Source: an uncultured Methanosarcinales archaeon
GTDB taxonomy: Archaea; Nanobdellota; Nanobdellia; Woesearchaeales; CAYNLP01
Assembly (NCBI GenBank): GCA_964398115.1
Contig: CAYNLP010000001.1
Span: 37,590 to 87,098 of the forward strand
Direction of reading: 5' to 3'
Length of the DNA stretch: 49,509 bases
Shown: in pieces, positions 1-31,433 of the stretch
Layout of the letters: every line of letters starts with the position of its first letter
How positions within the stretch are numbered: the stretch's first letter is position 1
Position numbers and translations under genes: made by a program
The notes under the pieces: generated by a model
The model's input: only the letters and a program-made list of their open reading frames with translations
Databases searched by the model: none
Told to the model about the DNA's origin: nothing

Positions 1-4
1 CACA

Positions 5-352
5 GTGGTTTACTCGTTCTTGACTTTTCATTATAACGGTAAGATGAGTAAGGCAATAAAGCGCATACCGAAGGAGTTCAAGAAAGGCTTTGGCTTTGGT
101 TTAGATAGTGAATATACGTGGAAGTTCAAACAACTCAAAAGATGTAATGGTATAGCTCTATACAAGCGTTCAAGACCTTTAGGCAACCTAACATACTATG
201 AAGTCGTTGAAATACGAGCCAGACAAACACGTCAAAAGGATGATAAGGTTTTGAAAGAAGTCTACCCGCCAAAAAGCGATTTTGGTAATTACGGTTTTTG
301 CTATAAAGAAAAAGAAAAAGCACTAAAGAAATTTCGGGAGTGGGTAGAATGA
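5..352 (+). CDS. Hypothetical protein (frame is open to the left window edge, so possibly 5' partial; internal ATG at 44)
   Basis: 115-aa ORF. Its stop TGA (350-352) overlaps the ATG (349-351) of the next ORF. No motif recognised. Confidence 0.5.
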   Translation: MVYSFLTFHYNGKMSKAIKRIPKEFKKGFGFGLDSEYTWKFKQLKRCNGIALYKRSRPLGNLTYYEVVEIRARQTRQKDDKVLKEVYPPKSDFGNYGFCYKEKEKALKKFREWVE

Positions 353-453
353 CGTGGGAAAAAATCTTCTCATATCGGGATAGAAAACTAGAGAAGTGGA
401 GAGAAGAAAATAGCTGCAATTGTGATTGCAAAAAGGGTGAAGTAGAAGTATGA
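349..453 (+). CDS. 34-aa micro-ORF with a CNCDC cysteine cluster
   Basis: ATG at 349 overlaps the upstream stop. Its own TGA (451-453) overlaps the mcm ATG (450-452), giving a chain of ATGA couplings. Translation MTWEKIFSYRDRKLEKWREENSCNCDCKKGEVEV. Confidence 0.3.
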   Translation: MTWEKIFSYRDRKLEKWREENSCNCDCKKGEVEV

Positions 454-2573
454 GTGAAGAGAATTCTGAAAACGCCTATAGTAATATTGTATCGTTGTAT
501 CGTGAGTATTGTGAGTATCATAATACAAGCGATACAAACGATACAGATGATACTGCGATACAACAACTAATAAGGCATTTTGAGAAACAAAGTTACAAAC
601 AACAAATTCTATTCGAATTGTACGAAGAAAACTACAATAATCAAGATTTAGCTGAAAGATTAGATGTTGAGGAACACATAGCAAGGAAAACCACTAAGCG
701 TTTGAAAGACGATGGTTTAATTGAGGTTAAGGAGAAAGACGGTAATACAAAAATATACGGCCTTACCACTAGAGGACAAAACAGGATAAAAGATTTAGTT
801 AAAAACTATGTAAAAAACAATACTTCACCATTAGTACAAGGTAAAGTCCGACAAGATAAAAAGGTTCAATCTTGGATTAACTACTTTGAAAGCCACGAGG
901 ACATTTCAAAAAGTAACAGTGGAAACTACAAACCACACATTACTACAACACTAGACCATATTGCGAAATTCAACCCTGACCTAGAACAAAAGATTGAACA
1001 AAGCCCTAGACAAGTTTTGAAAGCAGGGAAAAAAGCAATTGCTGAATTAAGCGATAAAAAGGAATATGCTGTAACACTAGAGATTGAATTGCCTGATACC
1101 CTTTCTTTCAATAAAGATATTAGTCAGCTACGGCAGAGTGATATAGGCGGTTTGATAACAGTAGAGGGTATCATCAGGCACAGAACAGAGTTGAATCCTC
1201 TAGCTGTAAAGCGAGTTTTTGAGTGTCCAAGCTGTAAGAACGTGATACATATAGAGCAAGACACTCGAAAGAAGAAAAAACCAAGTAAATGTAGTTGCGG
1301 TCGTAAAGGCAAATTCCACCAAATTGACGTAGAGTATCAAGACTATAGAATTCTAAAAATAGAAGAGTTAGACGAAGATAAAGGACACGTAACCAATCCT
1401 GAAAGTATATACGTAGAACTAAGGAATGAATTGACTAGACCTGGACGAGATACATACTTACAACCTGGTAGCAAGGTAAAGGTTTGTGGAATACTTGATG
1501 TTCGTGAAGCAAAAAAATCAAACAATAACGTTATGCTTAAACAGATTGACGGTTTATATATTGAGCCGTTAGATGATGACTACAGTAATTTAGAAATAGC
1601 AGAGGAGGACGAAGAAAAGTTTGAAGAAATTAAAAACAAAGAAAACCCCATCGAGTTCTTAAGTAATCAAGTGTTCGGGCATATAGTTGGTATGGATAAC
1701 GCCAAGAAGTCGGCACTACTACAACAATTTAGTAATGGATACACAAAGAGAAATAATGGTAACAAAGACAGAGGTTGGTTAAACGTTTGCATTCTTGGCG
1801 ATCCTGGTACAGCAAAATCAGATATAGGGAAAAGAATAGTTGATATTGCCCCTAGAAGTAAATCGGCACAAGCAACGAGTAGTAGTGGGGTTGGTTTGAC
1901 AGCTACGGCTCAAAGTGATGAAATGACGGGCGACTATTATGCCGAAGCTGGAGTTTTGGGTTTAGCTAATAGAGGAACGGCTTTTATTGACGAAATAGAT
2001 AAGATTGGAGAAGATGAGTTAAACTCAGTACATAATGCTATAGAGGACGGTAAAGTTAATTTGGATAAGGCAAACGTTCACGCTACTATTAGTACTGAAA
2101 CTAGAGTACTTGCGTCGGCTAATCCTGAAGATGATATAGTTGGCGACCAGAACCCTAGAAAACAACTCGGCGATGTGATAAAGAATAAGACAATCCCTGA
2201 TAGGTTTGACTTGATTGTTTTAGCGGAAAACTCTAGAAGTAAAGACAAAACCAAAAAAATCGCAGACACTTTCAACGAAGATAACGAGATAGAACAAAGC
2301 GATATAGATGACCAGACCATTAAGAAGTATATTCTAAAAAGTAGAGAGTTTAATCCTTCTATACCAAGCGACCTATTTGAAAAGTTAAAAGAATTATTTG
2401 TTGAAATAGAAGATGTAAAAGAATTCTATAGGGTAACACCTAGAGTTATGAGAACACTAATAGCTTTAGCTAAAGCTCACGCAAGAGCTAGACACAGCGA
2501 TACGGTAAACAAAGAGGACGTAAGGAAATCCGAAGAGCTATACAGGAGGGTAATGACCAATCCAAAATGGTGA
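450..2573 (+). CDS. mcm: MCM-family replicative helicase (AAA+) with N-terminal winged-helix extension
   Basis: Walker A GDPGTAKS and Walker B AFIDEIDK. Sensor-1-like VLASANP and Arg-finger region PDRFDL. Zinc motif CPSCKN...CSCG in an OB-like N domain. N-terminal wHTH-like LFELYEENYNNQDLAERLDV...GLIEV. Confidence 0.9.
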   Translation: MSEENSENAYSNIVSLYREYCEYHNTSDTNDTDDTAIQQLIRHFEKQSYKQQILFELYEENYNNQDLAERLDVEEHIARKTTKRLKDDGLIEVKEKDGNTKIYGLTTRGQNRIKDLVKNYVKNNTSPLVQGKVRQDKKVQSWINYFESHEDISKSNSGNYKPHITTTLDHIAKFNPDLEQKIEQSPRQVLKAGKKAIAELSDKKEYAVTLEIELPDTLSFNKDISQLRQSDIGGLITVEGIIRHRTELNPLAVKRVFECPSCKNVIHIEQDTRKKKKPSKCSCGRKGKFHQIDVEYQDYRILKIEELDEDKGHVTNPESIYVELRNELTRPGRDTYLQPGSKVKVCGILDVREAKKSNNNVMLKQIDGLYIEPLDDDYSNLEIAEEDEEKFEEIKNKENPIEFLSNQVFGHIVGMDNAKKSALLQQFSNGYTKRNNGNKDRGWLNVCILGDPGTAKSDIGKRIVDIAPRSKSAQATSSSGVGLTATAQSDEMTGDYYAEAGVLGLANRGTAFIDEIDKIGEDELNSVHNAIEDGKVNLDKANVHATISTETRVLASANPEDDIVGDQNPRKQLGDVIKNKTIPDRFDLIVLAENSRSKDKTKKIADTFNEDNEIEQSDIDDQTIKKYILKSREFNPSIPSDLFEKLKELFVEIEDVKEFYRVTPRVMRTLIALAKAHARARHSDTVNKEDVRKSEELYRRVMTNPKW

Positions 2574-2577
2574 TAGT

Positions 2578-2712
2578 ATGAGTTGGGGTTATCGTGATTG
2601 GGGTCGTGGAGAACACTTTGTACAGAAAGACGGTGAGGTGTGTCGAGAGTGTGGTCGTGATACCGCCGTTAGTAACAAGACAGGTTTATGCCGTAAGTGT
2701 AACGAAAAATGA
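2578..2712 (+). CDS. 44-aa zinc-ribbon mini-protein
   Basis: MSWGYRDWGRGEHFVQKDGEVCRECGRDTAVSNKTGLCRKCNEK with two CxxC pairs. Starts 4 nt after the mcm stop, with GGTGA just upstream. Confidence 0.5.
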   Translation: MSWGYRDWGRGEHFVQKDGEVCRECGRDTAVSNKTGLCRKCNEK

Positions 2713-2757
2713 AATATGAAACTTTTGTGAAATTTTTGTGAGGAGGGTTTGGTATTT

Positions 2758-2970
2758 ATGGGGCAATACGAAGTTTTACAGCTGCTGAAAGAAAAAGGTG
2801 AGACCTTAACGGTTAGGGATGTTAAGGACGAGTTGGGTATTAGTCGGACGAGTGCTTATGATAACCTTTCCAGTTTGGAGAAGTTTGGACTGGTCGAATG
2901 CAGTACTAGGGTTTTGATTGTTGGGAATCATCAGCGTAAAGAGGTTAAGGTTTACGAGGCAACGGCTTAA
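2758..2970 (+). CDS. Small winged-helix DNA-binding protein (TrmB/MarR/ArsR-like)
   Basis: LTVRDVKDELGISRTSAYDNLSSLEKFGLVE is a typical wHTH. ATG 2758 lies about 10 nt after GAGGAGGG, and the TTG at 2749 in the ORF track is less likely. Confidence 0.7.
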   Translation: MGQYEVLQLLKEKGETLTVRDVKDELGISRTSAYDNLSSLEKFGLVECSTRVLIVGNHQRKEVKVYEATA

Positions 2971-2974
2971 GAAA

Positions 2975-3148
2975 ATGAGTAGCGAGGATAGAAAAACGGG
3001 TACGAGAGGTAAACTTATGGTGGATTTCCTAAAGGGGAATGTTCAGATCAAGACATGTAGAAATTGTAACTCAACCTTAGGACGTGAAAGAGTGGGTGTT
3101 GGAGAAAAGGTTGAGGATGGCTTATGTTCGAGGTGTGAAGAGGAATGA
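2975..3148 (+). CDS. 57-aa zinc-ribbon protein
   Basis: CRNC...CSRC pairs. The in-frame ATG at 2975 lies 4 nt after the upstream stop, and the longer track ORF from 2918 overlaps the previous gene. Confidence 0.5.
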   Translation: MSSEDRKTGTRGKLMVDFLKGNVQIKTCRNCNSTLGRERVGVGEKVEDGLCSRCEEE

Positions 3149-3160
3149 TTCAAAAGGTGT

Positions 3161-3295
3161 ATGGTTGGTATGACCGTAACAGGTCTAGGATATTTTGGTA
3201 TAGCATATATGCTGTTTTCCTATACCTTACTGTTCGTTTTGCTATGGCTTTATGAATACAAAGAAACAAGTTTTTGGAGGATTGAATTAAGTTGA
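3161..3295 (+). CDS. 44-aa single-pass membrane mini-protein
   Basis: MVGMTVTGLGYFGIAYMLFSYTLLFVLLWLYEYKETSFWRIELS has a hydrophobic core. It sits below the ORF-track size cutoff and was found by reading the sequence. Confidence 0.4.
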   Translation: MVGMTVTGLGYFGIAYMLFSYTLLFVLLWLYEYKETSFWRIELS

Positions 3296-3465
3296 GTGAA
3301 GATGACAAGAAGCGGATAGTTTTGGAATTGGATATGAAAGAGTTAAATAATATTCAAGAGAAAATACTCGACATATTCAGAGAGGAAGACCTAACCACTC
3401 CAGAAGCGTTTTACATACTTCATAATCTCTCATGGAAGATTAACTTACGAGATTATCACGAATAA
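3292..3465 (+). CDS. 57-aa hypothetical protein (TTG start)
   Basis: TTG at 3292 overlaps the upstream TGA (TTGA), with GGAGG 11 nt upstream. Translation (M)SEDDKKRIVLELDMKELNNIQEKILDIFREEDLTTPEAFYILHNLSWKINLRDYHE. Confidence 0.4.
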   Translation: MSEDDKKRIVLELDMKELNNIQEKILDIFREEDLTTPEAFYILHNLSWKINLRDYHE

Positions 3466-3486
3466 GTAAGAGGAGGTGTTTCAAAT

Positions 3487-3651
3487 ATGCCTAAGGAAAA
3501 AAAGCTGACCACAACAGTACACAAAAGCGGCGAAGAGTATCTAAAGGTTAGTGTTCCAATTCAGTTAGCACGTGCGAAAGGTTGGAGTAGTGGTACTCGA
3601 CTAAGCTGGACTGTGGAAGAAGACGGCAAGATTAGATTAGAAGAAGCATAA
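3487..3651 (+). CDS. 54-aa AbrB/SpoVT-like (swapped-hairpin) DNA-binding protein
   Basis: AGGAGGTG SD upstream. LKVSVPIQLARAKGWSSGTRLSWTVEEDGKIRL resembles the SpoVT-AbrB pattern. Confidence 0.5.
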   Translation: MPKEKKLTTTVHKSGEEYLKVSVPIQLARAKGWSSGTRLSWTVEEDGKIRLEEA

Positions 3652-3702
3652 TCTCAGATTTTAAATCTTCATCCATTTTTTAATTCTTACCCAATTATTG
3701 TT

Positions 3703-4017
3703 TCATTCTTGGTACATATCTGATACTTTCTCGTAACCCCAAACACCGAGGGATATCACTCCATAAATCACCAAAAAAATCAGGAAAACAAGCACTAATT
3801 CCACAAGGAGAGTTCCAAAAGTATTACACGAAGAGCAACAATCCCCTAATATGGTAAAAGGCAATCTATGATAACAGTCTATAGGCGCCGCCATAGGTCC
3901 AGAATTGCAAGTAACATTCTCACATTGTCTTGTTAACCAAGCAAGAAAAATCGTGATCAAAAAAGTTATCAAAACAGACACATTCAACTTATTAAAACAA
4001 CGATTCCAATCCATCAC
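3703..4017 (-). CDS. Two-TM membrane protein with Cys-rich loop
   Basis: 104-aa ORF with hydrophobic segments at both ends and a CENVTCNSG...CYH...CCSSC loop. Confidence 0.5.
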   Translation of the reverse strand: MMDWNRCFNKLNVSVLITFLITIFLAWLTRQCENVTCNSGPMAAPIDCYHRLPFTILGDCCSSCNTFGTLLVELVLVFLIFLVIYGVISLGVWGYEKVSDMYQE

Positions 4018-4406
4018 TCCCTTTACAAAAACGACGCTATAAAAAAATTATTTCTTTTCAATAAATAGGTTTAGAAAATATTAATCTCAGAAACTTATAA
4101 ATTTTTGTTCTCAGATTCCCAGTTGATAATTCTTTTGTATACGTATTCGATTGGATGAAGCGGAATAATCAAAGATTGAGTTCACATAGTGTTTTTTAGA
4201 CGAGGAAAAACGGTTTTTGACGATATGTGTGAATGGGGAAATTATAGTATATATACTTACATAGATGATTGGATACTGCGAAAATGCAAGACGGAAAGCT
4301 GGAGAAGTAGCAGGAAAAGATAAGGGATAATAAGGGATATGCTTGGGAATGAAAGCGTAAACCAAGAAGAAATGGGGTATAACTTCAAAATGTAAAGTTA
4401 AATATC

Positions 4407-4472
4407 AAGTTATAACGGGTTTTTGTGGACTATAACGTAAAGTAAGGGTTGCGCCCCCGCCACTTAACTTAA
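4407..4472 (+). repeat. 66-nt unit 1 of a paralogous pair (candidate small RNA, iteron or att-like element)
   Basis: Same length as unit 2 and 46/66 identical by hand alignment. Conserved ends are AAGTTATAA-GGG..TTTGT and CCCGCCA-TTAACTTAA. Terminal 6-mers AAGTTA/TAACTT are inverted complements. GC-rich core GCGCCCCCGCCAC sits in an AT-rich tract. Confidence 0.55.
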
Positions 4473-4537
4473 ATTAAAGAAAAAGAGAAATAACAAAGTT
4501 TGTTGATAATAATAGTGAAAGTGTGAAGTTGAATGTG

Positions 4538-4603
4538 AAGTTATAAGGGGGGTTTGTAGAGGAGAGTGTGAATGAAACCGACCGCGCCCGCCATTTAACT
4601 TAA
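4538..4603 (+). repeat. 66-nt unit 2 of the paralogous pair
   Basis: See unit 1. The offset is exactly 131 nt. It is preceded by tandem TGTGAAGTT-GAA-TGTGAAGTT (4522-4542). Confidence 0.55.
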
Positions 4604-5046
4604 CTTACAAACAAAATTTAGTCATATTTTGTATTTAGTTGAGGAGGTGAAGCAAAATTACAACGTTTGAAATAGTGCTGATAGGTACAGGCGTTTTTGT
4701 GTTCCTTTTGTGTTTTGCTCTGACTTGGTACTTAGATCCACGTACAAGGATATAGAAAAAAAATGCAGTTAGTCAAAAAATTGACGAACTGGAGAAGTGA
4801 ATACGAGAAGATTAATTAGTAGAAGCGATTGATGTTCGTTCGTTCGGTAACATCTTATATATTACAAACTCAAAATTATAACAAAAATTTTATTAATATA
4901 ATATCTTGTATTAATACTAATACTAATGTAGAGGTCTTAACAACGTTCTTATGTGTACTTTGAACATATTTTATTCTACTACGGACAGGGCTTTGAACAT
5001 TCTCTGCCATAAATTTTATATTCTAACAAAAAACTAAAGCTTTGTG

Positions 5047-5679
5047 ATGAAGAAAGCAATAATAGCATTAACCCTAATTCTTGCCCTAACAAGCTGTAAT
5101 CAATCACAAACAGAACTAAGTTATTCAGAAGTTAACCAAACTACCAATCAAGAAGAATTCATCCATCAAGTCGTTGAAAGCAATGAAGACTTAAGACAGC
5201 AGAAAACAAGTTTACAGAATAAAGTAAATGATTTACAATCAAAATTGAAAGGACAAAACCAAACTATTAGGGAATTAGAAAGGACTATTCAAAACTTACG
5301 TCAAAGATTACAAGTTCCACCAGCACCACAGGATAGAATAAAACAAGGAGATATATCCATATTTGGAAACCGTTTTACAGTGAGAGAAGGAGACGTGTTC
5401 GTAGCAGTTTTTGAAAACACCGACTCTATGAAACCAGTACTAGATCAAACTTCACTAGCCATACAAGTACCTCCTTCCAACTACGAAGTAGAAACTGGTG
5501 ACATAATAGCTTTCAAAGCCAACTACACCGACAAGTTAGTCGTTCATAGAATCATCGCAACCGGCACTGACAGCCAAGGATGGTTTGCCATTACCAAAGG
5601 TGACAACAACCCCACACCAGATCAAGGCAAAGTCAGAAAAGAAGATATAGTAGGAGTTACCCTATCAATACTCTACTAA
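5047..5679 (+). CDS. Signal peptidase I, archaeal/ER Sec11-type (S26 family), with lipobox-like N-terminus and coiled-coil insert
   Basis: Catalytic Ser box TDSMKPVL, His box LVVHRII and GDNN box. N-terminus MKKAIIALTLILALTSC. Q/E-rich coiled coil at about aa 40-95. A GTG at 5044 is an alternative start. Confidence 0.8.
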   Translation: MKKAIIALTLILALTSCNQSQTELSYSEVNQTTNQEEFIHQVVESNEDLRQQKTSLQNKVNDLQSKLKGQNQTIRELERTIQNLRQRLQVPPAPQDRIKQGDISIFGNRFTVREGDVFVAVFENTDSMKPVLDQTSLAIQVPPSNYEVETGDIIAFKANYTDKLVVHRIIATGTDSQGWFAITKGDNNPTPDQGKVRKEDIVGVTLSILY

Positions 5680-5726
5680 CAAAAGGAAAGTATTAAAATA
5701 ACTAAATTTCCTAAAAATAAAAGAGG

Positions 5727-5996
5727 ATGGAAAACACACAAAAATTTTTGATAGGAGCCATAGTCCTCCTGTTATTATTGAACATAGCCACTCTTGTATT
5801 CGTCTTAAACAGCACAAACTCGATAACAGGTGCGGCCGTAACCAGCTCTAATTCCTTAACTGAGGGATCGGTAGTTATAGAAGGAAAACTAGCAGAAGAC
5901 AGTGAACTGAATAAATGCTGTGACGTGGGAGAAAAGAAGGGATGTTACGTCACTCAAGGAAGTGGATGTTCCGCATGCAACTCAGTATGTGAGTGA
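5727..5996 (+). CDS. Small membrane-anchored Cys-rich protein
   Basis: N-terminal TM LIGAIVLLLLLNIATLVFVL and C-terminal CCDVGEKKGCYVTQGSGCSACNSVCE. Confidence 0.5.
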   Translation: MENTQKFLIGAIVLLLLLNIATLVFVLNSTNSITGAAVTSSNSLTEGSVVIEGKLAEDSELNKCCDVGEKKGCYVTQGSGCSACNSVCE

Positions 5997-6329
5997 GGTA
6001 TTTGGAAAATACTTATCCACTCTAGTTAAATCAATATGGTCTTCTTGAACAATAACTTTTGGTTTCTCACCCCACTCCTCTTCTACAAGGTTAGAATACA
6101 CCAAGGCGGGACCTTCATACTCTGGCTTAACCTTAATTTTTAAACCTTTTTCATCATCAAATTTACCAATTACTGTCTGAAACAAAAAACCGTTTCTAAC
6201 AATATTTTCCAAGTTATCTACAGGGACGTGACCACTTGGACCCGTAACAAAATTTCCACGAACCTTCTTCCCAAAAGCTTTTTGTAAAAGTTCGTTAACC
6301 TGCCTTACCCTATCAGTTTCCGAACTCAT
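5982..6329 (-). CDS. Hypothetical cytoplasmic protein
   Basis: 115-aa ORF with ordinary composition. It converges on and overlaps the previous gene by 15 nt. No motif recognised. Confidence 0.5.
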   Translation of the reverse strand: MSSETDRVRQVNELLQKAFGKKVRGNFVTGPSGHVPVDNLENIVRNGFLFQTVIGKFDDEKGLKIKVKPEYEGPALVYSNLVEEEWGEKPKVIVQEDHIDLTRVDKYFPNTSLTY

Positions 6330-6415
6330 TAACGTAAGAAAAATATTGTATGATTTTTAAACATATGCAGAAAATAAGTTTTAAATAAACAACTAATTTT
6401 TCCAACACTTGCAAC

Positions 6416-6547
6416 GCGGGGGTTCCCGAGTGGCCAAAGGGGCAGGACTTAAGATAAACCCTTAAGTGTTTGAGGCCTAAACAGCCGATGAAAAATAAGA
6501 AATCCTGTGGCTTAGTGCCTTCAAGGGTTCGAATCCCTTCCCCCGCA
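6416..6547 (+). tRNA. tRNA-Leu (anticodon UAA) with 48-nt intron at the canonical 37/38 position
   Basis: Acceptor GCGGGGG/CCCCCGC plus discriminator A. Anticodon stem CAGGA/TCCTG with loop CTTAAG[intron]A, anticodon TAA at 6450-6452. Long variable arm GGCTTAGTGCC. T arm AAGGG-TTCGAAT-CCCTT. Intron is about 6454-6501 and contains CTTAAG complementary to the anticodon loop. No encoded CCA. Confidence 0.9.
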
Positions 6548-6594
6548 CTCTATTGAAAAAATTATTTAAGTGCTTCACTTCTTCAACATCGATT

Positions 6595-7563
6595 ATGGAA
6601 AGAGATTGGATCCTAACAGGTTCACTTGTAATTGGCATACCTCTTTTCATATATATCCTTCTTCAAACCAACACGGGAGAGATGATAAACCTTCTTCAAT
6701 CCGCTCCCATCCAACCCATTATAGGATTCATAATAACATCCATAGTTTTAGTGTTTCTATTCACATTCGCATGGGCTGTCCTCCTCTACTCAGAAAGTAT
6801 ACATCTTCCTTTCAGACGTCTCATTTCCTACAGAATGATAGGTTTTGCAATAAGTTACGTCACTCCAGGACCGAAAATCGGCGGTGAAATAACCCAAGCA
6901 AGAGTTGCAAGTAGAGAAGGTAACGAGAAAAAACTTTTAACAACCTCAATTATGGAAAACATTTCACACACCATCGCAGGATTAATTTTTGACGGCGCAG
7001 TTATAGGAATAGCTATAGCATTCATACCTATACCTCCTTTCTTTCATTACGTTTTCTACACCTTGACAGGAATAGCACTGATAATTCCTTTCCTATACCA
7101 CATAGTGATAAAAGAAGACTTCAAACCTGTTTCCTGGATTGTTGAAAAACTAGACAGTGTAGGGATGATAGCAAGAAAAGAGTATCAAAAAGCTGTTGTA
7201 AACGCTGAAAAATACTTTAAAAAGTATTTGAATGAAAACCAAAAAAGTATCGTTATAAGCACTCTGATATTATTCTTTTCTAAGTTAATACTTTCTATCC
7301 AAATCATGTTCATAGCACAAATGCTTTCAGTGAACTTAACCATTCCTCAAGCTATGTTGTTCGCAGCGGTGATCGACATAGCATACACCATCCCGGCGTA
7401 CATGGGAATAGGCGTGTTAGAAGCCGGGCAAGCCTCAATCTCTAGCGTTTTAGGATTAACTGGCGGTTTTGGAGTGACAGTCGCCTTGCTAACAAGAGTT
7501 CGCGACCTAACAATCAGTGGATTAGGACTAACCATGCTCTGGCACTATAGAGAAAAATCCTAA
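6595..7563 (+). CDS. Polytopic membrane protein, UPF0104 / lysyl-PG-synthase-TM (flippase-like) family
   Basis: Multiple TM helices and RMIGFAISYVTPGPKIGGEITQARV, which is typical of the family. ATG 6595 is preferred because the TTG at 6553 starts 6 nt after the tRNA. Confidence 0.6.
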   Translation: MERDWILTGSLVIGIPLFIYILLQTNTGEMINLLQSAPIQPIIGFIITSIVLVFLFTFAWAVLLYSESIHLPFRRLISYRMIGFAISYVTPGPKIGGEITQARVASREGNEKKLLTTSIMENISHTIAGLIFDGAVIGIAIAFIPIPPFFHYVFYTLTGIALIIPFLYHIVIKEDFKPVSWIVEKLDSVGMIARKEYQKAVVNAEKYFKKYLNENQKSIVISTLILFFSKLILSIQIMFIAQMLSVNLTIPQAMLFAAVIDIAYTIPAYMGIGVLEAGQASISSVLGLTGGFGVTVALLTRVRDLTISGLGLTMLWHYREKS

Positions 7564-7635
7564 ACAAATTTGACAGAAGAAAAAAGTTTTTAATTACCCA
7601 CCACTTTTCAAACCCAAAGAAAGAGGTGGGTTTAT

Positions 7636-8712
7636 TTGGTTTTAGAACAGTTTAAAGTTGAAGAATTCAATTGGGGTCCAGGACTTTTCCTGATAGGATA
7701 TCACCTCGCTTTCTTCATCACCTTACCAATTTACTTGGCAAATCAACTTCCAGGTTGGAAACTACTCCTAGGAACTTTCATATTATATTACGTGACGGGC
7801 TTGTGCTTGACCGCCGGCCAGCATAGGCTTTACAGCCACAAAGCATACGACGCTAATCCCATAGTAGAAAGCATCATGCTTTTCTTCATAACAAGCGCGG
7901 CAGAAGGAAGCGCGATTGAATGGGCACACGACCACAGACTTCATCACAAACACGTAGACAGCGATAAAGACCCTTACAACGTAGAAAAAGGATTGTGGTA
8001 CGCACATTTCACCTGGATGTTAGAAAAGAAAAACAGGTATTTAGAAAAAGTCACACCCGACTTGTTAGAAAACAAACTAGCCAAGTTCCAACACGACCAC
8101 TACGGCCTCCTCTTTCTAATAAGCAATGTAATACTAACAGGAGGACTGGCTTGGTGGACAGGAGACGTATTCGGCTCCATCGTCATAGGATTCCTAGCAA
8201 GAATATTCTTCATACACCACAGCACATGGTTTATCAACAGCATAGCACACTACTGGGGCACCAAGCCATTCAGCAAAGAACACAGCGCGGTAAACAACTT
8301 CATAATTGCCATACTTACATGGGGAGAGGGATATCACAACTACCACCACACATTTGAAGGTGACTACCGAAACGGTGTTTGGTGGTGGCAATTCGACCCT
8401 ACCAAAGCACTGATATGGATTTTAGAAAAACTGGGGCTAGCGAAACACTTAAACAAAGTAAAGAAAAGCACTGTGCGAAAAGCAATGTTGATGGAAGACA
8501 AACAAAAAATGTTATACGTAGTAGAAGACGCAGAAGTCAAGAAAAGGATAAAAGAACTACATCAAAGCCTTACAAACAAGCTGCAAGAAATCTACGATTC
8601 AAAAACAGAAGAGGTTAAAGAGAAAAAGAAACAGTTCAAAAAGGAATGGAAAGAATGGACGAAACTTTGCGAACAAGTATTAAGTGAACACCCGGAAGCA
8701 CATCATCACTAA
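7636..8712 (+). CDS. Membrane fatty-acid desaturase, Delta-9 (stearoyl-CoA/acyl-lipid desaturase) family, with K/E-rich C-terminal extension
   Basis: Three His boxes: HRLYSHKAY, HDHRLHHKH and GEGYHNYHH. Also NSIAHYWG. TTG start 6 nt after GAGGTGG. The C-terminal roughly 85 aa are coiled-coil-like and end HPEAHHH. Confidence 0.9.
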   Translation: MVLEQFKVEEFNWGPGLFLIGYHLAFFITLPIYLANQLPGWKLLLGTFILYYVTGLCLTAGQHRLYSHKAYDANPIVESIMLFFITSAAEGSAIEWAHDHRLHHKHVDSDKDPYNVEKGLWYAHFTWMLEKKNRYLEKVTPDLLENKLAKFQHDHYGLLFLISNVILTGGLAWWTGDVFGSIVIGFLARIFFIHHSTWFINSIAHYWGTKPFSKEHSAVNNFIIAILTWGEGYHNYHHTFEGDYRNGVWWWQFDPTKALIWILEKLGLAKHLNKVKKSTVRKAMLMEDKQKMLYVVEDAEVKKRIKELHQSLTNKLQEIYDSKTEEVKEKKKQFKKEWKEWTKLCEQVLSEHPEAHHH

Positions 8713-8723
8713 CAAAACTGTAT

Positions 8724-9158
8724 CTAACCGTACATTCCAACGATTTTATCTTCTTCAATCACGTGCCCTTCCATAGCTTCTAAAACATCTTCTTTATCCG
8801 CATTGTTAGGCAAATCCAAATTCGTATCCAAAGCATAAATTTTGAAAAAATATCTGTGAGTCCCACTCGGAGGACACGGACCACCGTAATCATTTTTTTG
8901 AAAATCATTCAAAGCCTGTTCTCCAGGAACGCTATCTTCTTTAATCTCTGTAGTTTCAGGACTAATATTATAGACAATCCAATGATCCCAAGTTCCTGGC
9001 GGAGCGTCAGGATCATCAACTATCAAAGCAAGAGTCTCAGAACCTTCCGGTACACCCTCGATATTCAAAGGCGGGTTTACATCCTTACCGTCGCAAGTAT
9101 ACTTTTCCGGAATGTTAGATTCGTTGTTAAAAACAGGACTGCTTATATTCAAACTCAT
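8724..9158 (-). CDS. PEBP / YbhB-YbcL family protein
   Basis: DDPDAPPGTWDHW and GPCPPSGTHRYFFKIYALD motifs. ATG at 9158 follows GAGGTGA, and the track start at 9230 adds an implausible N-terminus. Confidence 0.85.
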   Translation of the reverse strand: MSLNISSPVFNNESNIPEKYTCDGKDVNPPLNIEGVPEGSETLALIVDDPDAPPGTWDHWIVYNISPETTEIKEDSVPGEQALNDFQKNDYGGPCPPSGTHRYFFKIYALDTNLDLPNNADKEDVLEAMEGHVIEEDKIVGMYG

Positions 9159-9263
9159 CAAAACTTCACCTCTCTCACTCTTCTTGACATTTGTTTGAAA
9201 CCTTATAAAATTTAGTTTTTTCAGAAACATTTATAATAATAATCTATCATTACCAATCATGGG

Positions 9264-9665
9264 GTGAATGGAAACATGTTTGAATTTATGGAAGACTATC
9301 ACGACGAAGCTTATTTTGTAATGAGAGTACTAGCTGGACTGCTATTCATGCAACACGGAGCACAAAAACTGTTCGGCGTTCTAGGCGGAGAACAAGCACA
9401 ACTTGTCAGCCAAATGGGAATAGCAGGGGTTATAGAATTCTTTGGAGGACTATTCATAACCATTGGATTATTCACCCGACTTGCAGCCGTGCTAGGAGGT
9501 TTAGAAATGCTTTGGGCGTACTTCACAGTTCACATTTCAGAAAGTTTCTGGCCTATCTTAAACGGTGGAGAAGGCGCTTTGCTATTCTTCACAGTCTTCC
9601 TAATCTTCATGGTTCACGGCGCGAAGAAGTGGGGAGTGGATAACTTAATTTCGGCGACGAGGTAG
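9264..9665 (+). CDS. DoxX family membrane protein
   Basis: LLFMQHGAQKLFG motif and 4 TM helices. Start is ambiguous (GTG 9264 or ATG 9276). Confidence 0.75.
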   Translation: MNGNMFEFMEDYHDEAYFVMRVLAGLLFMQHGAQKLFGVLGGEQAQLVSQMGIAGVIEFFGGLFITIGLFTRLAAVLGGLEMLWAYFTVHISESFWPILNGGEGALLFFTVFLIFMVHGAKKWGVDNLISATR

Positions 9666-9702
9666 CAAATTTTATAAACCACTAAATCGTCCCGAAACAC
9701 AC

Positions 9703-10404
9703 ATGAAGAAAACACTCCTAACTACAATTTTTATAAGCCTATTATTGATAGCTTGTTCGCCGCAAAAAGACAATCCTCAAACAGAAAAGATCGAAACAGT
9801 GAATGAAGTACTAGATGCTATCAAAAAACTTGATTCAGAATACAACACGTCTTTCAGAAGAGAACAAATGAATAAAGTCATTTTAAACACGGACGAAATC
9901 GAATCTTACTTGAGAGACTTAGAGAATATCAGTCAGAGAGTGGATGCTAAGAACCAGCAACAAGGTGAGTGGATTAATTGGACGTTACAAGCAAGAAAAG
10001 AAATGTTACTAAGCCAGTTCGGATTTCAACAAGCATGGGTTGGAGTTGGAAAATCTGGGAGGGTAAGTGAAGGTTTTTCCTGCAACGACTTTAATTCAGT
10101 GCAAAAGTCTAGTTTACTTTTAGAAAGATCTTTGCTTCTAGGAAACAACGCAACCAGCTACCTTGACGCGTTACTGACAGAAAACATGAATTTAAGTGAT
10201 GAAATCGGCGTGGATGAAAATAAACCCGCATTTTATAATTCAAAATTTGACGCCGTATACGTAGAGTTACAAAGAAATGCTGTGGCTATGAACGAATTCT
10301 GCAACCAAACAGTACAGTTTAACCATTATAATTTCACAAAACTTATAGAAGAAACAGACGTTAACACAAGCAAATACAAGAGAGGTGCTACAAATGGGAA
10401 TTGA
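9703..10404 (+). CDS. Secreted protein with bacterial-type lipobox, unknown function
   Basis: MKKTLLTTIFISLLLIACSPQ signal. No recognised domain. Confidence 0.6.
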   Translation: MKKTLLTTIFISLLLIACSPQKDNPQTEKIETVNEVLDAIKKLDSEYNTSFRREQMNKVILNTDEIESYLRDLENISQRVDAKNQQQGEWINWTLQARKEMLLSQFGFQQAWVGVGKSGRVSEGFSCNDFNSVQKSSLLLERSLLLGNNATSYLDALLTENMNLSDEIGVDENKPAFYNSKFDAVYVELQRNAVAMNEFCNQTVQFNHYNFTKLIEETDVNTSKYKRGATNGN

Positions 10405-10792
10405 AGAACCAGAATCTATGGAAAATTTGATGTATGTCACTAACAGAAGACTAGGCGACGGAAAGATAATGGCCTGGACTTATAGAGTTGACTGTCCAGA
10501 ATGCGATGAAGAATACCTTACTAAGCCCAGCAAGAAGACAGGGAAAGGGCCTAACACTCGAGCTAAAAAGTATACTTGTGACAACTGCGGTTTTGAAATG
10601 CCTGAAGAAGACGTTAGAGACGCAGCAGTGCTACAAGCCAAGTATACTTGTCCTCACTGTGGTGAGAAAGGAACAGCTGAAACCGACTACAAAAGAGAAA
10701 AGTACAAAGGGACAAAAGCTTACATCTTTACATGCGAACACTGTGATGAAGAAATTCCATTAACGAAGAAAATGAAAGAGGTCGACCTCTAA
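10394..10792 (+). CDS. Four-CxxC zinc-ribbon protein
   Basis: CPECDEE, CDNCGFE, CPHCGEK and CEHCDEE motifs. ATG 10394 follows AGAGGTG. GTG 10385 is an alternative start. Confidence 0.6.
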   Translation: MGIEEPESMENLMYVTNRRLGDGKIMAWTYRVDCPECDEEYLTKPSKKTGKGPNTRAKKYTCDNCGFEMPEEDVRDAAVLQAKYTCPHCGEKGTAETDYKREKYKGTKAYIFTCEHCDEEIPLTKKMKEVDL

Positions 10793-11199
10793 TCTCCATT
10801 CACTAAGTAATCAATACTCCTCTTATACGCTCTTGCATACCTTTGCATCATTTTAATGGTAGGAGTGGAAGTATTTCTTTCATGCTTTCCTATGGTATTA
10901 TGATTTATACCTACTTCTTCAGATACTTCACGCAGGGTCATGCCTTCCTCTAATCTGAGTTGGGTTAATCTATGACCTAATGTTCCTTCCTCTCTTTCTT
11001 TCAAAACTTTAGGTTTTTTCAAATGGGGACTAGAATAATTCCTTCGTCTTTCACTGCTCACAACTGCAGCGGCATGTAGTCGGTCCCACGCTTCTTGATA
11101 ACTACAGTTTGGATAACCCCAATCCTTTGCTATAGGCTGATAAGAGTTTAATCCTACCATTTTTGCTAGGCATTTCTGCGTTGGTGGTTTGCCAAACAT
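10789..11199 (-). CDS. XRE-family HTH protein with unknown N-terminal domain
   Basis: C-terminal LRLEEGMTLREVSEEVGINHNTIGKHERNTSTPTIKMMQRYARAYKRSIDYL is a classic HTH_3. Confidence 0.7.
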   Translation of the reverse strand: MFGKPPTQKCLAKMVGLNSYQPIAKDWGYPNCSYQEAWDRLHAAAVVSSERRRNYSSPHLKKPKVLKEREEGTLGHRLTQLRLEEGMTLREVSEEVGINHNTIGKHERNTSTPTIKMMQRYARAYKRSIDYLVNGD

Positions 11200-11295
11200 T
11201 TCATGGTAGAACCTGTAATTAACTATTTCTTGTGCTTACCTAGAATTCTTACTCCACGGCCTACCTATTTCTCTGGTCATCAAAATTAAGAATTA

Positions 11296-11643
11296 TTATT
11301 CGGTTTTAATTGTGTAAGTGGCGATACCACCAGCACCGCAGTCGTACACATACATTACGCCATCTCGTAATATTTGGTAATCTATGAGATCACAATTATC
11401 GTGTAAGATGTTGATACTTTTGCCTGCCACGTTTTCAGACTCATTTAACAGGACAGGGGTGGCATTAGAACCTTCACCTTTCACCACCATCGTCGGTGGT
11501 TTAGGAAGGTTACTTAACTCTCCTGATTTAAAATCAGCAACTCCAGACGATTTATCTGGAGTTTGTTGCGTCATAAAGACCATTCCTACAATTCCTACCA
11601 CTGCCACGACGCTCACTATGTAAAGACTTGTCTTATCACTCAT
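11296..11643 (-). CDS. Membrane-anchored or secreted small protein
   Basis: N-terminal TM LYIVSVVAVVGIVGMVFM followed by a beta-rich C-terminal domain. Confidence 0.5.
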   Translation of the reverse strand: MSDKTSLYIVSVVAVVGIVGMVFMTQQTPDKSSGVADFKSGELSNLPKPPTMVVKGEGSNATPVLLNESENVAGKSINILHDNCDLIDYQILRDGVMYVYDCGAGGIATYTIKTE

Positions 11644-11683
11644 AACGCTACTTAAACATAATAGGTTTTATTTAAACCTTTCG

Positions 11684-12241
11684 TCATCCGTAAAAGCTTA
11701 TTCTTTCTTCCGTACACATAACCGCTAACAACATTTTAGGATTATCTTTCTTTATCCTTTCCAAGCTATCAAGGTCGGTTTGAGAAGCTATGCATCTCTG
11801 ATAAGGATGGCTATGTAAATCAATTATGGTACCAACAGGGCATGGATCGGAAACCACTCTGTAAACATGAGCTGAATGAACTTCTGGCTGCATTACTTCA
11901 CTAACAATATAATTATTTCCTTCAACTCGTCCTTTCAAACAACTCTTAAACTCATGCTCTTGATTATCTCTGTAAAGCTCAACCAATTCATCATAAGTAT
12001 TGCCTTGAAAAACAATCGTTTTATTCCCATAATTAAAATATCCGCTATCTACACTACTGCTTTCAAAAAATCCAGCTATGACATCATGGACTCTAGGACT
12101 GACGATTAGGTAAGAAATGAAGAGAACTGCTAGTATTATTGCCAATCCATAACGCCAATAAGGACTAACGCTTAACCTTTCAGCATCTTCATCAAGTTCT
12201 TCATCAATCTCACGCGCTTCTTTCTCAGGATCAATATCCAT
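11684..12241 (-). CDS. Membrane-anchored JAB/MPN (JAMM) metalloprotease-domain protein
   Basis: Canonical JAMM motif HSHPYQRCIASQTD (HxHx7SxxD) with an upstream Glu (MQPEVH). Acidic N-terminus, then TM GLAIILAVLFISYLIV. ATG 12241 is preferred, and the TTG at 12292 sits 13 nt from tRNA-Pro. Confidence 0.7.
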   Translation of the reverse strand: MDIDPEKEAREIDEELDEDAERLSVSPYWRYGLAIILAVLFISYLIVSPRVHDVIAGFFESSSVDSGYFNYGNKTIVFQGNTYDELVELYRDNQEHEFKSCLKGRVEGNNYIVSEVMQPEVHSAHVYRVVSDPCPVGTIIDLHSHPYQRCIASQTDLDSLERIKKDNPKMLLAVMCTEERISFYG

Positions 12242-12304
12242 AGAAAAAGTAACGTCAACCAAGTTTAAATAAAGGTTGGTATGTTTTCTCAAAAACTACA
12301 AAAG

Positions 12305-12378
12305 AGGGGTTGTAGTGTAGCTTGGCTATCACTCTGCGTTCGGGGCGCAGCAACGGGGGTTCAAATCCTCCCAACCCC
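12305..12378 (+). tRNA. tRNA-Pro (anticodon CGG)
   Basis: Acceptor GGGGTTG/CAACCCC plus A. Anticodon stem CTGCG/CGCAG with loop TTCGGGG. T arm GGGGG-TTCAAAT-CCTCC. 74 nt, no intron, no encoded CCA. Confidence 0.9.
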
Positions 12379-12424
12379 ACTTTCTATAACAATCTTTAAA
12401 AACCAACATTCTATCCTCTAAGTT

Positions 12425-14568: not shown

Positions 14569-17500
14569 ATGACGAGAAAAGTAATCCTAGGCTTGATAAC
14601 CATCTTCTTACTAACCATACCTCTCTCATCAGGTCAAGAAGTAACCAATCTCGAACTCACTAAATACGATTCAAAAGTAGAACTTGTAAGCACACAAAAT
14701 TATAGAACCGCAGACATGCACTTCACCTACCAAGGACCCAGCTTCGACGAAGTAACTATCGACACCGGTAACCTCTACGTAGAAGATGACAATCCAGTAA
14801 AAACTATTTCTAGAAACAACTGTGTCAAAGAAAACGACGCTTACCACTGTACACTGACAGATTTAAGAATTCAACCACCCGTCCAAGAGGGAAACACATT
14901 CCAAGGACAGATAAACTTCAGATTCATAGGGGATGAAATCCACGAGGATAGAGTAAACTACAATTTCGAAATTGACAACACACAACCCGTGATTGAAAAC
15001 ATCGGCACACCTGCTTGCGAGGAAGACTGCAACATAGGACCAAACGGCAAGCTAAAAATAAAAATCCAAGATGAAAAAGCAAGTTTCAACAACGGCTACA
15101 TCTTCTACCACGTAAACGAAGGAAGCGCTTACATGGTCGACAGCTGCAACTCAACCACTTGCACCGCGTCGATAAACTACAACTGCCAACAAGGAGAAAA
15201 CGTAAAAGTTGACATTGGAGACTATCAAAACGTTCCAAGCCAAGATGACGCTGGCAACCCAGTAAGATTCAACGAAGGAGAAATCACAGAAACATTCACC
15301 TGCGACAGAACCAAGCCAGAAATTCAAAGCTTCACAGTAACAAGCGAAGGAACACCACAGATAACAGAGAATGAAACGGTGACGATACAAGCGACAGTGA
15401 AAGACAACAGCGCAGTATTGATAAAAGCTAACGCAAAGAGTTTCAACGAAAAAGACAAAGTATTAACAAACAAATGCACACCTAACGGGGAAAGTCAGCA
15501 ATGCACACTAAAGTTCAAAGCAAACAAGTCAGCTTACAGACAAGCCCGCATACAATTCACGTTTGAAGACGAAGCAGGAAACACCGTGTCAACAAAAAAA
15601 CAATTAGAAATACTGGAAGAAGCAACAGGAGACGTAAACAACCTATGGACAGTACGAAACGTCCAAGCCAGCCCAACACAAGTTAATACTAAAACACTTC
15701 AATATTTCGAAAAAAAGGTTTACGCATCCACCGCGTTAATCCCAGAACTGGGAGGTGCAGGAGTAGTACAGCAAAAACTTCAAGGATGTCAAGTTGAAGA
15801 ACCTAACATGAACCTTGAAGCAGAATTGATGAGTACAGGAAAAACATTCCAAGTAAAAACCACTCTCCCCACCAGCCTTTCTCAAACAAAGAAGTCAAAA
15901 ATATTCATAAACTGCACGGTTGAAACACACAGCAAGAGACGGACAAGAGCTGTTTCAAATTCAGAAATTGACAGTTTCAGCTACCAAATAAACCTAGAAG
16001 ACTTTCCAGACAGACCAGAAAAATTACAAGAAGAACTCAAAAACATACAAAGCCAAAACAAGAAGTGGAACGATTATTTTGGAACAGTTCAAAAATGGAC
16101 TAACACCTTCACCACGATTTGCAGAGCAGGACAAAAAATAAAGGGGATAACCGGCTTGTTAGGAGGAGTAGAACAAGCATTTTGCTCCAACCCAGTAACT
16201 GCAGGAGCAGCCCCAAGTTTGAAACCACCAGCGGACGCAACTGGTAAGTCAAGCGATGCATTATGGACAGGTCTAGGCAAGTTTTGCAAGTTCTTAACCT
16301 GCAATACCAAAGTACAAGAAGGATTGGAAGATTGGGTTACAAGCCTCGACTTCGGAAGTGGAGCAAGCGTAGACTCAATAACCTCAAGCCTAGGCTTGCC
16401 CAAAGAAGCGCTTTTCCGACCAGAAAACAGCTTAGTTTGGAGCGCCGCCACTTTATGCCTTCCAGGAATGGTTTCAAACCTACAACGCTACAGGGTCATC
16501 CAATGCGAATATCAGAGGTGCATACAGCAAGACAGCATACAAGCAGGAATTCCAAGCTATGCATGTAGAGAAGTAAAGAGTAGGAGTACATGTCAATTCA
16601 CGACAGGACAAATCAGCAAACTTATACCTCAAAGCTTGATGTTCCAACAAGCAGGAAATCTCGTAAAACAAGCACTATCCAACCCGATAGGCCTTCTTGG
16701 AGCAGGTATAAACACTGTCTTTAGTTGCGCCAGTAAACCAGCATGTAGTGGACACGTTGCATGTACCATAACCGACGCTGTAAGTAAAGTAGGACAGTAT
16801 GTCAGCATGTTCAAAGGCATTAGCAACACTGCAACCTCTATGAAGAATGGCTTTAATTCCGCCCAACAAACCGGACCATGCAAAGCAGTAAAAGAACAAG
16901 GAGATGTTGAACTGTACGACCCTGTCGTAGACTCACAAATATCAGAAAGTGAAAAGTCAAGTTTCAGAAATTGCCAAAACGGGATGTGCTCTAATGGAAA
17001 TATTAGAGTAGGACCAAATGGAAATACTGAACTATTAGCTTATCCAGACGATTCCGGTAACGGTAATCTTCATATAAAGTATGAAGGGAGTTATCGGCGA
17101 ATAGAAAGAACCTCAGAAAGTTTGAACATAGACATGACACAAACAATAGATGAAAATAATATAAAAAGTTCCCAGGCACAAACTATTACAATAGTTAGAA
17201 CCCAGCCAACAGTTACTGTAGGAATGCAAGCAGGATTGGAAACAACTGGATCTGACACTTTTTCCAAGAAACAGATTTTAGAGAAAACAGAGGCTGGAAC
17301 AACTCCTGCAACTGAAAAGGTATTGGCTGATAGAGATGAGTTGCAAGAACAAGCCCAGGAGAACCAGGAGAGAAAGCAACAACAGAGGGAAGATCAAGAA
17401 GAGTCCAATGAAGCAGCTAAACAACACGGTCAAGCGATAGGTCAACTAAACAAGTTAGAAAACGAAGTCGAAAGATGGGCTTCAAACCAAGAAGATTATA

Positions 17501-20408: not shown

Positions 20409-21300
20409 ATTGGCTCATTATTTGTACGTCTTTTAACCTGTCGCAGTAGTTCTTGTTGTTTTCTTGTTGTACTTCGGTGCAGTATTGAGTTTGTCCTTCT
20501 ACTATAAAGTTCATGTAGCAGTTGTCTCTCGTGGTGGTATCGCTTATTTTTTGGCAGAATTGGGCTCTGTTTGATTCTTTTACTACGAGGAATAGGCAGT
20601 CATCTTTTTGGGTTTGGTTTTCTAGTTTCATGCAGAGTTGTTCTGCTTGGCTTGGTTGTGTGGCTGCTTTGTTGCGTACTTTTTCTAATATGTTGTCTTC
20701 AGTTGATTGATCTTTTGTTTCTTGAGAATTTCTTGGTTGTACTTGGAATGTGAATGAGGAGCTCGCCTTTTTACCGTCGTAGTTTGCTATTGCTTCGAGG
20801 GTGTAAGTTCCAGGCTGGTTGGGAGCTTGGATGCTTCCATCTCTTATCACGGAAGTGCTTACTGCAAATGTTTCTTCATTGCTATAAACCGCTTCTCCAT
20901 TATCATCTAAAATTTTGTAATTAACCACTGCGTCAAACTTTTCTGCATCTCCTAGATTGGTTAGTTTTATACTGTAAGATACTTGTCCGCCCGCTTGGAC
21001 GGTTCCTCCTGTCTTGGTGATTTGAAAGTCTAATAACGCTTCGGATCCTATCATGCCAGCGAATTCTAGAACTCCTATCACTATGCCGGCTGCTAGTATT
21101 AATAAGAGTAGGGTGTAGGCTATGGCAGATTTGGAGATGTGATGTTCGTGCTTTACTGTTTGTCCTGTTCTACTGGCTCTTTTCAACGCGTTGTTAATGG
21201 TTTGATTGTCGTATCCATAGTTTTCTAGATAACTCTTTATGTAATCCTCGCTATATCCTTGGTTGATGAGTTTTTCAACATAATCTGCCAGGTCTGTCAT
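20398..21300 (-). CDS. Bitopic membrane protein: cytoplasmic helical N-domain, TM, Ig/CARDB-like ectodomain, Cys-repeat tail
   Basis: N-terminal DYVEKLINQGYSEDYIKSYLENYGYD and TM AYTLLLLILAAGIVIGVL. Beta-sandwich-like GGQVSYSIKLTNLGDAE...PGTYTLEAIANY. C-terminal repeats of C-x8-10-(D/R)(D/N)-C. Confidence 0.7.
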   Translation of the reverse strand: MTDLADYVEKLINQGYSEDYIKSYLENYGYDNQTINNALKRASRTGQTVKHEHHISKSAIAYTLLLLILAAGIVIGVLEFAGMIGSEALLDFQITKTGGTVQAGGQVSYSIKLTNLGDAEKFDAVVNYKILDDNGEAVYSNEETFAVSTSVIRDGSIQAPNQPGTYTLEAIANYDGKKASSSFTFQVQPRNSQETKDQSTEDNILEKVRNKAATQPSQAEQLCMKLENQTQKDDCLFLVVKESNRAQFCQKISDTTTRDNCYMNFIVEGQTQYCTEVQQENNKNYCDRLKDVQIMSQSNQ

Positions 21301-21384
21301 TAACTTGTTTTTTACTACTGTTTGTATATAAAATTAGTGGAAAGGCAAAAGTTTAAATTCTACAATTACCTGGTTTATAAATTG

Positions 21385-31423: not shown

Positions 31424-31433
31424 ATATAGTGAT

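Follow-up and report, generated by a model that had tools for sequence, protein, structure and literature searches.

What is the 1-kb non-coding tract at positions 4020–5043 of this stretch of archaeal DNA (contig CAYNLP010000001.1; 49,509 nt, called here the window), in which two 66-nt units with similar ends and differing centres lie close together? A reading made from the letters without database searches (the sequence-only reading) had proposed a pair of small structured or guide-like RNAs, the replication origin of a mobile element, or an attachment (att) region. Judged from its anatomy only, we tentatively read the tract as a cluster of protein-binding repeats acting at the DNA level, the possible, though not probable, origin or control region of an integrated element that encodes an MCM helicase. 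The sequence was located in two sediment metagenome DNA runs only (~5x depth; no RNA run), and the tract is unchanged in the assembler contigs from both, with no variants in it.

By the open reading frame (ORF) lists, the tract separates divergent genes at 3703–4017 (−) and 5044–5679 (+). It had been described as the largest ORF-free region of the window, which is correct at an ORF threshold of 50–70 aa, where the largest gap is 4366–5043, but not at 100 aa, where 4018–5043 (1026 nt) ranks second to 2574–3702, an interval full of small genes.

The two units, at 4407–4472 and 4538–4603, have the coordinates, the offset of 131 nt and the identity (46 of 66 positions) that the sequence-only reading gave them, and are the two exact matches to an end-anchored pattern, AAGTTATAA-N(30–60)-TTAACTTAA, that matched in none of 100 shuffles. 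The duplication is wider than the units, spanning 98 nt (4387–4484 against 4518–4615, 69 of 98 positions identical, 70%, offset 131), and each 98-nt copy is referred to here as a module. Using a profile made from the two copies, no third copy was found in the window, and a longer array with a 131-nt period was rejected, the duplication having two copies only. Identity is unevenly spread, with 27 of 33 positions in the 5′ block (A), 15 of 31 in the centre (48%) and 19 of 22 in the 3′ block (B), against a random expectation of 29% for this comparison; the divergence differs between the parts with a Fisher p of 0.001, for boundaries set after looking, and a scan statistic p of 0.029. The conserved ends and variable centre noticed earlier are real (82–86% against 48% identity), and the centre has kept its length of 31 nt in both modules. 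Conserved ends and a centre of constant length fit two binding blocks held at a fixed distance.

The blocks carry a short repeated core, AAGTTR. Eight sites, counted on both strands, lie within 4375–4610 (236 nt), where 0.6 would be expected (Poisson P = 3e-7), and form the densest such cluster in the window; the maximum per 236 nt across 1.59 Mb of other, unrelated fetched loci is five. When aligned, the sites read (G/T)T(G/A)-AAGTT-(A/G)(A/T)A(T/A), followed in four by a G-run. The left end of a module carries a tandem pair of sites spaced by 12 nt, and the right end one inverted site or two; the G-runs of sites within the modules point to the module centre. The tandem pairs recur 131 nt apart, half of the eight sites being inverted, and nowhere do three or more form an array. 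Beyond the tract, the 12-nt inverted match between 3979–3990 and 4526–4537 would be expected ~0.05 times by chance, by our own estimate. The sequence-only reading had named GTGTGAA iterons instead. The 9-mers in question are present where it placed them (GTGTGAATG at 4227 and 4566, TGTGAAGTT at 4522 and 4534), but are no more enriched than the duplication makes them; shuffles, too, often contain 9-mer repeats, and for short direct repeats the tract ranks ~22–28 of 379 windows, no more than a moderately unusual value. The repeated element is the AAGTTR core, not GTGTGAA.

The genes upstream of the tract have an element-like arrangement, and the MCM gene at 450–2573 looks element-derived. Several winged helix-turn-helix (wHTH) families match residues 36–118 of the protein, a viral HTH family matches at 3.6e-6, and the helix-helix-strand-strand order of the N-terminus fits a winged helix, the single-sequence model being poor (pLDDT 42); the C-terminal winged-helix family PF21120, present in most of the cellular MCM matches, gave no match. 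No protein in a set of 5.8 billion is more than 34% identical to this MCM (nearest ~30%, the best matches being MCMs of Woese- and Pacearchaeota), while the methionyl-tRNA synthetase (MetRS) of the host reaches 55%. On the cellular MCM model, for which the cut-off is 940, the protein scores 293 bits. The gene lies outside the TBP-MCM arrangement seen around the cellular MCMs of two DPANN genomes, and distant MCMs aligning over 91–93% of its product sit in similar runs of small genes on short element-like contigs. Viruses and plasmids of archaea have often taken up MCM for the role of main replication protein (PMC6563490). The gene for a 73-aa wHTH protein lies 1.05 kb upstream of the tract.

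The following arrangement is proposed. The two units would be DNA-level protein-binding modules rather than RNA genes, each 98-bp module presenting AAGTTR(W)A as a tandem pair on the left and as one or two inverted copies on the right, with the 31-bp centre free to vary. The modules and the 90% A+T tract 250 bp downstream of them would make up the cis-acting control region, most likely the replication origin, of a mobile element that is integrated or in decay and may or may not still be active, and whose replication module would consist of the wHTH-MCM gene at 450–2573 and the small DNA-binding genes after it. A winged-helix protein of the element, for which the N-terminal domain of MCM itself and the 73-aa wHTH protein are the candidates, may bind the AAGTTR/G-run sites as an oriented array, which would bring MCM onto adjacent A+T-rich DNA, in the 45-bp inter-module spacer or in 4857–4927. 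The spacer (4473–4517) is bordered by inverted AAGTTA/G-run sites, and the 90% A+T tract (4857–4916) is not. The very A+T-rich stretch with TAATAC repeats reported earlier is real, with 90% A+T across 60 nt from 4857 and TAATAC x2.7 at 4912–4927. The region shares the anatomy common to origins in general, namely the largest gene-free tract, a dense motif in both orientations with G-runs, an A+T-rich spacer, and a 90% A+T 60-mer 250 nt off.

Table 1. Coordinates of the modules, sites, promoters and genes in and around the tract (strand: +, − or. for none).
Feature	Position	Strand	Description
MCM helicase gene	450–2573	+	Divergent; putative extra N-terminal winged helix (~residues 36–118); candidate initiator/helicase
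Five small genes	2578–3651	+	44-aa Zn-ribbon, 73-aa wHTH, 76 aa, 57 aa, 54-aa AbrB/MazE-like; candidate DNA-binding partners
Left-flanking gene	3703–4017	−	104-aa membrane protein
Outlying site AAGTTGAATGTG	3979–3990	−	In 5′ end of the 104-aa gene; perfect 12-nt inverted match to 4526–4537
Two BRE/TATA promoter matches	4036–4051 (10.2 bits), 4092–4107 (8.9 bits)	−	Serve the 104-aa gene
Extra inverted site TGAAGTTATACCCC	4374–4387	−	Just upstream of module 1; first 10 nt a perfect complement of 4536–4545
Module 1	4387–4484	+	Holds unit 1 (4407–4472)
5′ block A1	4387–4419	+	AAGTTR cores at 4395 and 4407 (12 nt apart), then CGGG; 27/33 identical to A2
Variable centre of unit 1	4420–4450	.	31 nt; aligns to 4551–4581 of unit 2 with 48% identity
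3′ block B1	4451–4472	−	AAGTTAAGTGG then CGGGGGCGC on the − strand; inverted block A motif, G-run toward unit centre
Spacer between modules	4473–4517	.	45 nt, ~75–80% A+T; flanked by inverted sites of B1 and A2, G-runs pointing away
Module 2	4518–4615	+	Holds unit 2 (4538–4603)
5′ block A2	4518–4552	+	Tandem TGTGAAGTTNAA x2, cores at 4526 and 4538, then GGGGGG
3′ block B2	4582–4607	−	Two overlapping AAGTTA cores (TAACTT at 4596 and 4601 on +), then ATGGCGGGCGCGG
A+T-rich tract	4857–4927	.	(TAATAC)x2.7, A+T palindromes, three inverted repeats; candidate unwinding element
Host-type promoter	5009–5024	+	Serves the signal-peptidase-like gene at 5044
Right-flanking gene	5044–5679	+	Lipoprotein-like, archaeal signal-peptidase-I-type C-terminal domain

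Several observations weigh against an origin of this kind, beginning with the motif itself. The count of AAGTTR sites is inflated, the two modules being paralogous and their sites not independent, and the motif is short and A+T-rich; three to four sites in ~85 nt are still unusual for one module. Only two modules are present, the inverted-repeat content of the region is ordinary among windows, and the 60-mer from 4857 is the fourth most A+T-rich in the window, the three richer ones lying at 30–32 kb. The sequence-only reading put the tract next to the MCM gene, which is a loose description: the gene stops at 2573, leaving 1.45 kb and six small genes before the tract. Cellular DPANN MCMs reach 278 bits against the window MCM and element-borne MCMs 174 bits, and a cellular origin of the gene is possible. 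Read depth (~5x) does not clearly set the MCM module apart from its flanking genes, this part of the window has no integrase or att site that would delimit an element, and contigs of the two runs contain no joints, empty sites or alternative junctions across 1–12400 at that depth. GC skew tracks gene direction and is uninformative about an origin.

For a canonical archaeal origin, the signals expected are origin recognition box (ORB) repeats and an adjacent initiator gene, and archaeal chromosomal origins have A+T-rich segments between ORB repeats beside an orc1/cdc6 gene (PMC4010727), the ORB and mini-ORB boxes having TTCC and GAA cores in common and often a G-string (PMC1904270). A cluster of canonical ORB/mini-ORB boxes is absent: a search with TTTCCASTGGAAA, allowing up to 3 mismatches, gave 12 scattered matches in the window against 21.9 expected, one of them in the tract, at 3 mismatches. 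There is no Orc1/Cdc6 gene adjacent to the tract or anywhere in the window. Both absences count against an origin, and since there is neither ORB enrichment nor a bona fide orc1/cdc6 gene, the tract is not of the ORB-origin family, and a canonical Orc1/Cdc6-dependent origin was rejected. The one AAA_22 ATPase in the window, at 44903–46027 (−; 374 aa), was considered as Orc1/Cdc6 and discarded (21 bits against a cut-off of 181, no winged-helix C-terminal match, no PDB relative by sequence); a related contig (L151) encodes, at 6900–8024, a 374-aa protein with a weak MCM_lid match. What was said of an element origin before the present analysis thus keeps circumstantial support from the gene context and the motif cluster, but the iterons are not GTGTGAA, and ORB boxes and an adjacent orc1/cdc6 gene are missing.

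Likeness to known origins is partial in each case. Somewhat as in archaeal oriC regions, one A+T-rich segment, the spacer, is flanked by inverted sites, and the composite sites with their terminal G-run recall the ORB ‘G-string’ (PMC4010727, PMC1904270), but the tract has no TTCC...GAA core, there is no orc1/cdc6 gene in the window, and the sequences are unrelated. Iteron-type plasmid origins with a winged-helix Rep protein (for example IncP-1; an analogy, PMC6563490) resemble the tract in that short repeats cluster between genes that lie far apart, next to A+T-rich DNA, and in that a replication protein with a winged helix, putative here, is encoded nearby. They differ in that the tract lacks a regular array of three or more direct repeats of 17–22 bp, having sites of 9–15 bp in tandem pairs with inverted copies in two 98-bp modules, and in that the putative initiator here would be an MCM fusion rather than a Rep protein, with its gene 1.45 kb away.

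In SV40 large T antigen and papillomavirus E1, an origin-binding domain is fused to the helicase. By analogy of mechanism only, the wHTH-MCM could both recognise head-to-head origin repeats and be the replicative helicase, although it is an AAA+ MCM and not an SF3 protein. To our knowledge, hardly any mobile-element origin has been mapped in uncultivated archaea, DPANN-like ones included, and it is unclear how an element-encoded MCM helicase locates its DNA. Should the MCM-fused winged helix bind the AAGTTR/G-run modules, this MCM would, like the initiator-helicases of viruses, recognise its own origin with no need of Orc1/Cdc6; a relic or an ordinary regulatory region would matter little beyond this locus. 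The observation rests on one locus in one low-coverage metagenomic population.

No homologous tract was found in the collections searched, which again counts against the proposed origin. The exact unit pattern gave 9 matches in 185,579 species genomes, all attributable to chance and none with the GGG/CCCGCC features, and 0 matches in IMG/VR, where looser block patterns matched 16 and 41 loci, none extending past the pattern itself. Phage records gave no BLAST match, and the contigs with element-borne MCMs (L090–L093) contain no comparable repeat region. In a metagenome scan with MetRS, the nearest relatives were 54–55% identical and had no common gene order and no unit-like sequence. The signal-peptidase-like neighbour of the tract (5044–5679) has one relative, 45% identical, in another context and with an upstream spacer of only 134 nt. 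The window is archaeal (LonB, an intron-containing tRNA and an archaeal-type signal peptidase), and its lineage is isolated, the best MetRS relatives being 54–55% identical with no gene order in common.

Among the alternatives, a non-functional relic survives best, though we consider it doubtful. The modules would then be a local 131-bp tandem duplication in a decaying element or intergenic DNA, and the conservation of their ends a matter of chance or of recent partial gene conversion. Such a relic would agree with the presence of two copies only, the lack of relatives, a scan statistic that reaches only p = 0.029 for the uneven divergence, and contigs of the two runs that give no sign of element activity. 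The + strand of 4020–4660 has, moreover, a purine content of 0.595, as a decayed gene would, most soluble-protein genes having 0.57–0.64. Against a relic stand the difference between ends and centre (82–86% against 48%, Fisher p = 0.001) and its location, since the conserved parts are exactly those with the eightfold motif in both orientations. The reading frames also speak against it: ten stop-to-stop frames of at least 34 aa in the tract, out of 24 of at least 25 aa, were compared with Pfam and none matched. Hidden coding was rejected on the same result, and an 84-aa ORF at 4111–4365 (−), which sits on the pyrimidine-rich strand, looks spurious.

A pair of small RNA genes, guide-like or regulatory, is unlikely. 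Constant 5′ and 3′ handles would pair (AAGUUA with UAACUU, GGG with CCC) around a variable 31-nt centre, and the RNAs may start at an element promoter that departs from the consensus or be excised from a longer transcript. This would account for ends that are conserved around a centre of variable sequence and fixed length, for terminal 6-mers that are complementary in both units with a predicted shared closing stem, and for a purine-rich + strand, as transcribed strands are. Each test that was run (promoter, fold, covariation, Rfam and centres) nevertheless gave no support. For promoters, a position weight matrix was built from 34 upstream regions of this organism (consensus GAAAGATTTAAATACC), on which real promoters mostly score 8–17 bits and that of tRNA-Pro 11.3 bits; no host-type promoter occurs within, at or beside the units on either strand, the best score being 2.1 bits. 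The units fold no better than shuffles on either strand (z +0.88 to −0.92), and over 4370–4640 (271 nt, both modules), the + strand folds worse than 193 of 200 shuffles (z +1.8) while the − strand is unremarkable. Covariation analysis, recommended earlier for homologous regions of related contigs, was carried out on the two copies. Because the closing helices are invariant between them, they carry no covariation evidence, and no meaningful covariation was seen elsewhere; the consensus structure has −6 kcal/mol, and its two ‘compensatory’ positions are G-U pairs in a weak inner helix. Rfam gave nothing in the tract at the gathering threshold, and two chance-level matches at E up to 10, none on the units. 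The variable centres have no match of 11 nt or more, and hence no target, within the window.

With neither promoter nor structure nor covariation, nothing marks an RNA gene here, and the AAGTTR core, which also occurs outside the units and inverted, is a better fit to DNA recognition. The closest known class, archaeal C/D box sRNAs, resembles the units in length (~60–70 nt), in conserved ends with variable internal guide-like parts, and in a short terminal stem, but the units have no k-turn, no Rfam match and no promoter, and C box (RUGAUGA) and D box (CUGA) are absent on both strands of both. Small RNAs are thus left with no positive support. That the units are genes for an undescribed kind of element-encoded small RNA, in which constant self-pairing handles AAGUUAUAA...GCCAnUUAACUUAA enclose an exchangeable 31-nt centre by which a protein partner would be directed to nucleic-acid targets beyond the window, is very unlikely.

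A transcriptional control array is also quite unlikely. The AAGTTATAA and AAGTTAAAT boxes would be degenerate BRE/TATA elements, that is, duplicated weak promoters, or operators for element genes, with a transcript reaching the frame at 4651–4755 (+) as one example of a target. The motif does resemble the host BRE/TATA consensus AAG-TTTAAATA, genes for small wHTH and AbrB-like regulators lie nearby, and a perfect Shine-Dalgarno site, GAGGAGGTGA, stands at 4641–4650 ahead of this stop-free hydrophobic frame. The boxes, however, score far under real promoters, and the frame has no ATG, GTG or TTG within workable distance of the Shine-Dalgarno site, about half of the GGAGGT sites in the window likewise having no start codon after them. 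The tract contains three promoter matches of at least 8 bits, at 4036 (−), 4092 (−) and 5009 (+), and the modules lie more than 270 nt from all three, which argues against simple operators. The frame itself encodes a 34-residue peptide (SKITTFEIVLIGTGVFVFLLCFALTWYLDPRTRI), and the sole suitably spaced codon is ATT at 4657, so that this is an unusual start or else a motif that arose by chance on the purine-rich strand.

Apart from the modules, the promoter consensus GAAAGATTTAAATACC is clear and usable for annotation of the window (1–49509). The TATA box ends mostly 20–35 nt ahead of the start codon, which implies that many mRNAs are probably leaderless or have short leaders; genes with leaders carry GGAGGT or GGGGG Shine-Dalgarno sites. 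At 4071–4115, the TATA box of the promoter match at 4092–4107 (−) sits between the copies of a 21-nt direct repeat, in which CTCAGA recurs at a distance of 24 nt; the repeat is a possible operator of the second promoter of the 104-aa gene.

An att or recombination site at the junction of element and host, in which the GC-rich ...GCCA cores would be remnants of tRNA 3′ ends, is highly improbable. The tract does lie between element-like and host-like genes, tRNA-Leu is 1.4 kb to its right, and direct reading of the sequence finds AAGGGTT and CCCCCGC common to unit 1 and the 3′ end of tRNA-Leu. Local alignments of the tract to tRNA-Leu (6416–6547) and tRNA-Pro (12306–12380) were nevertheless no better than those of shuffles, no exact match of at least 13 nt links the tract to either tRNA region, and the few repeats of 11–13 nt in the window look like chance. 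The att region suggested by the sequence-only reading has no significant repeat in common with either tRNA, excision joints and empty-site contigs are absent from the two runs, and the left end of the element would lie beyond the window. The arms of 15 bp with a 36-bp spacer are unlike tyrosine-recombinase core sites, and the only integrase in the window is 26 kb off and has its own 54-nt repeats. A miniature inverted-repeat element (MITE) or other small non-autonomous transposon (the two copies, 70% identical, are neighbours, the window has no further copy, and no other contig in the two metagenome runs matches at 80% or more), a CRISPR mini-array (blocks A and B are mutually inverted rather than direct, and Tandem Repeats Finder finds none) and a tRNA relic (nothing found by ARAGORN, alignments to tRNA-Leu and tRNA-Pro not significant) were rejected.

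The tRNA-Leu gene at 6416–6547 (+) is of class II, with anticodon UAA and an intron, an insertion of ~51 nt following the anticodon loop. It was found by local cmscan at 41.5 bits against a gathering score of 29, after being missed by ARAGORN and by whole-window Rfam at the gathering threshold, and a strong promoter, AAGTTTTAAATAAA, stands by it at ~6378. In contig L151 (8474–10504), relatives of the signal-peptidase-like gene and of tsaD/kae1 (45% and 44% identity) lie ~500 nt apart, whereas in the window the two genes, at 5044–5679 and 48696–49502, are 43 kb apart and in opposite orientation, which points to a large rearrangement or insertion between them. Successive genes at 14569–24649 encode large proteins (1242, 704, 300 and 616 aa) that do not match Pfam at E up to 1e-5, as is typical of the unknown surface or secreted proteins found in archaea with small genomes. 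At 30346–32265 lies a mini-element very rich in A+T (27% G+C), where 54-nt direct repeats at 30346–30399 and 32212–32265 (83% identical, 1866 nt apart, with an inverted copy at 30920–30947) bracket a PadR-like wHTH gene (30528–30893) and a short, 209-aa tyrosine recombinase (31434–32063, Phage_integrase E = 1.7e-32), and this could be a small integrative element or an Xer/dif-type locus.

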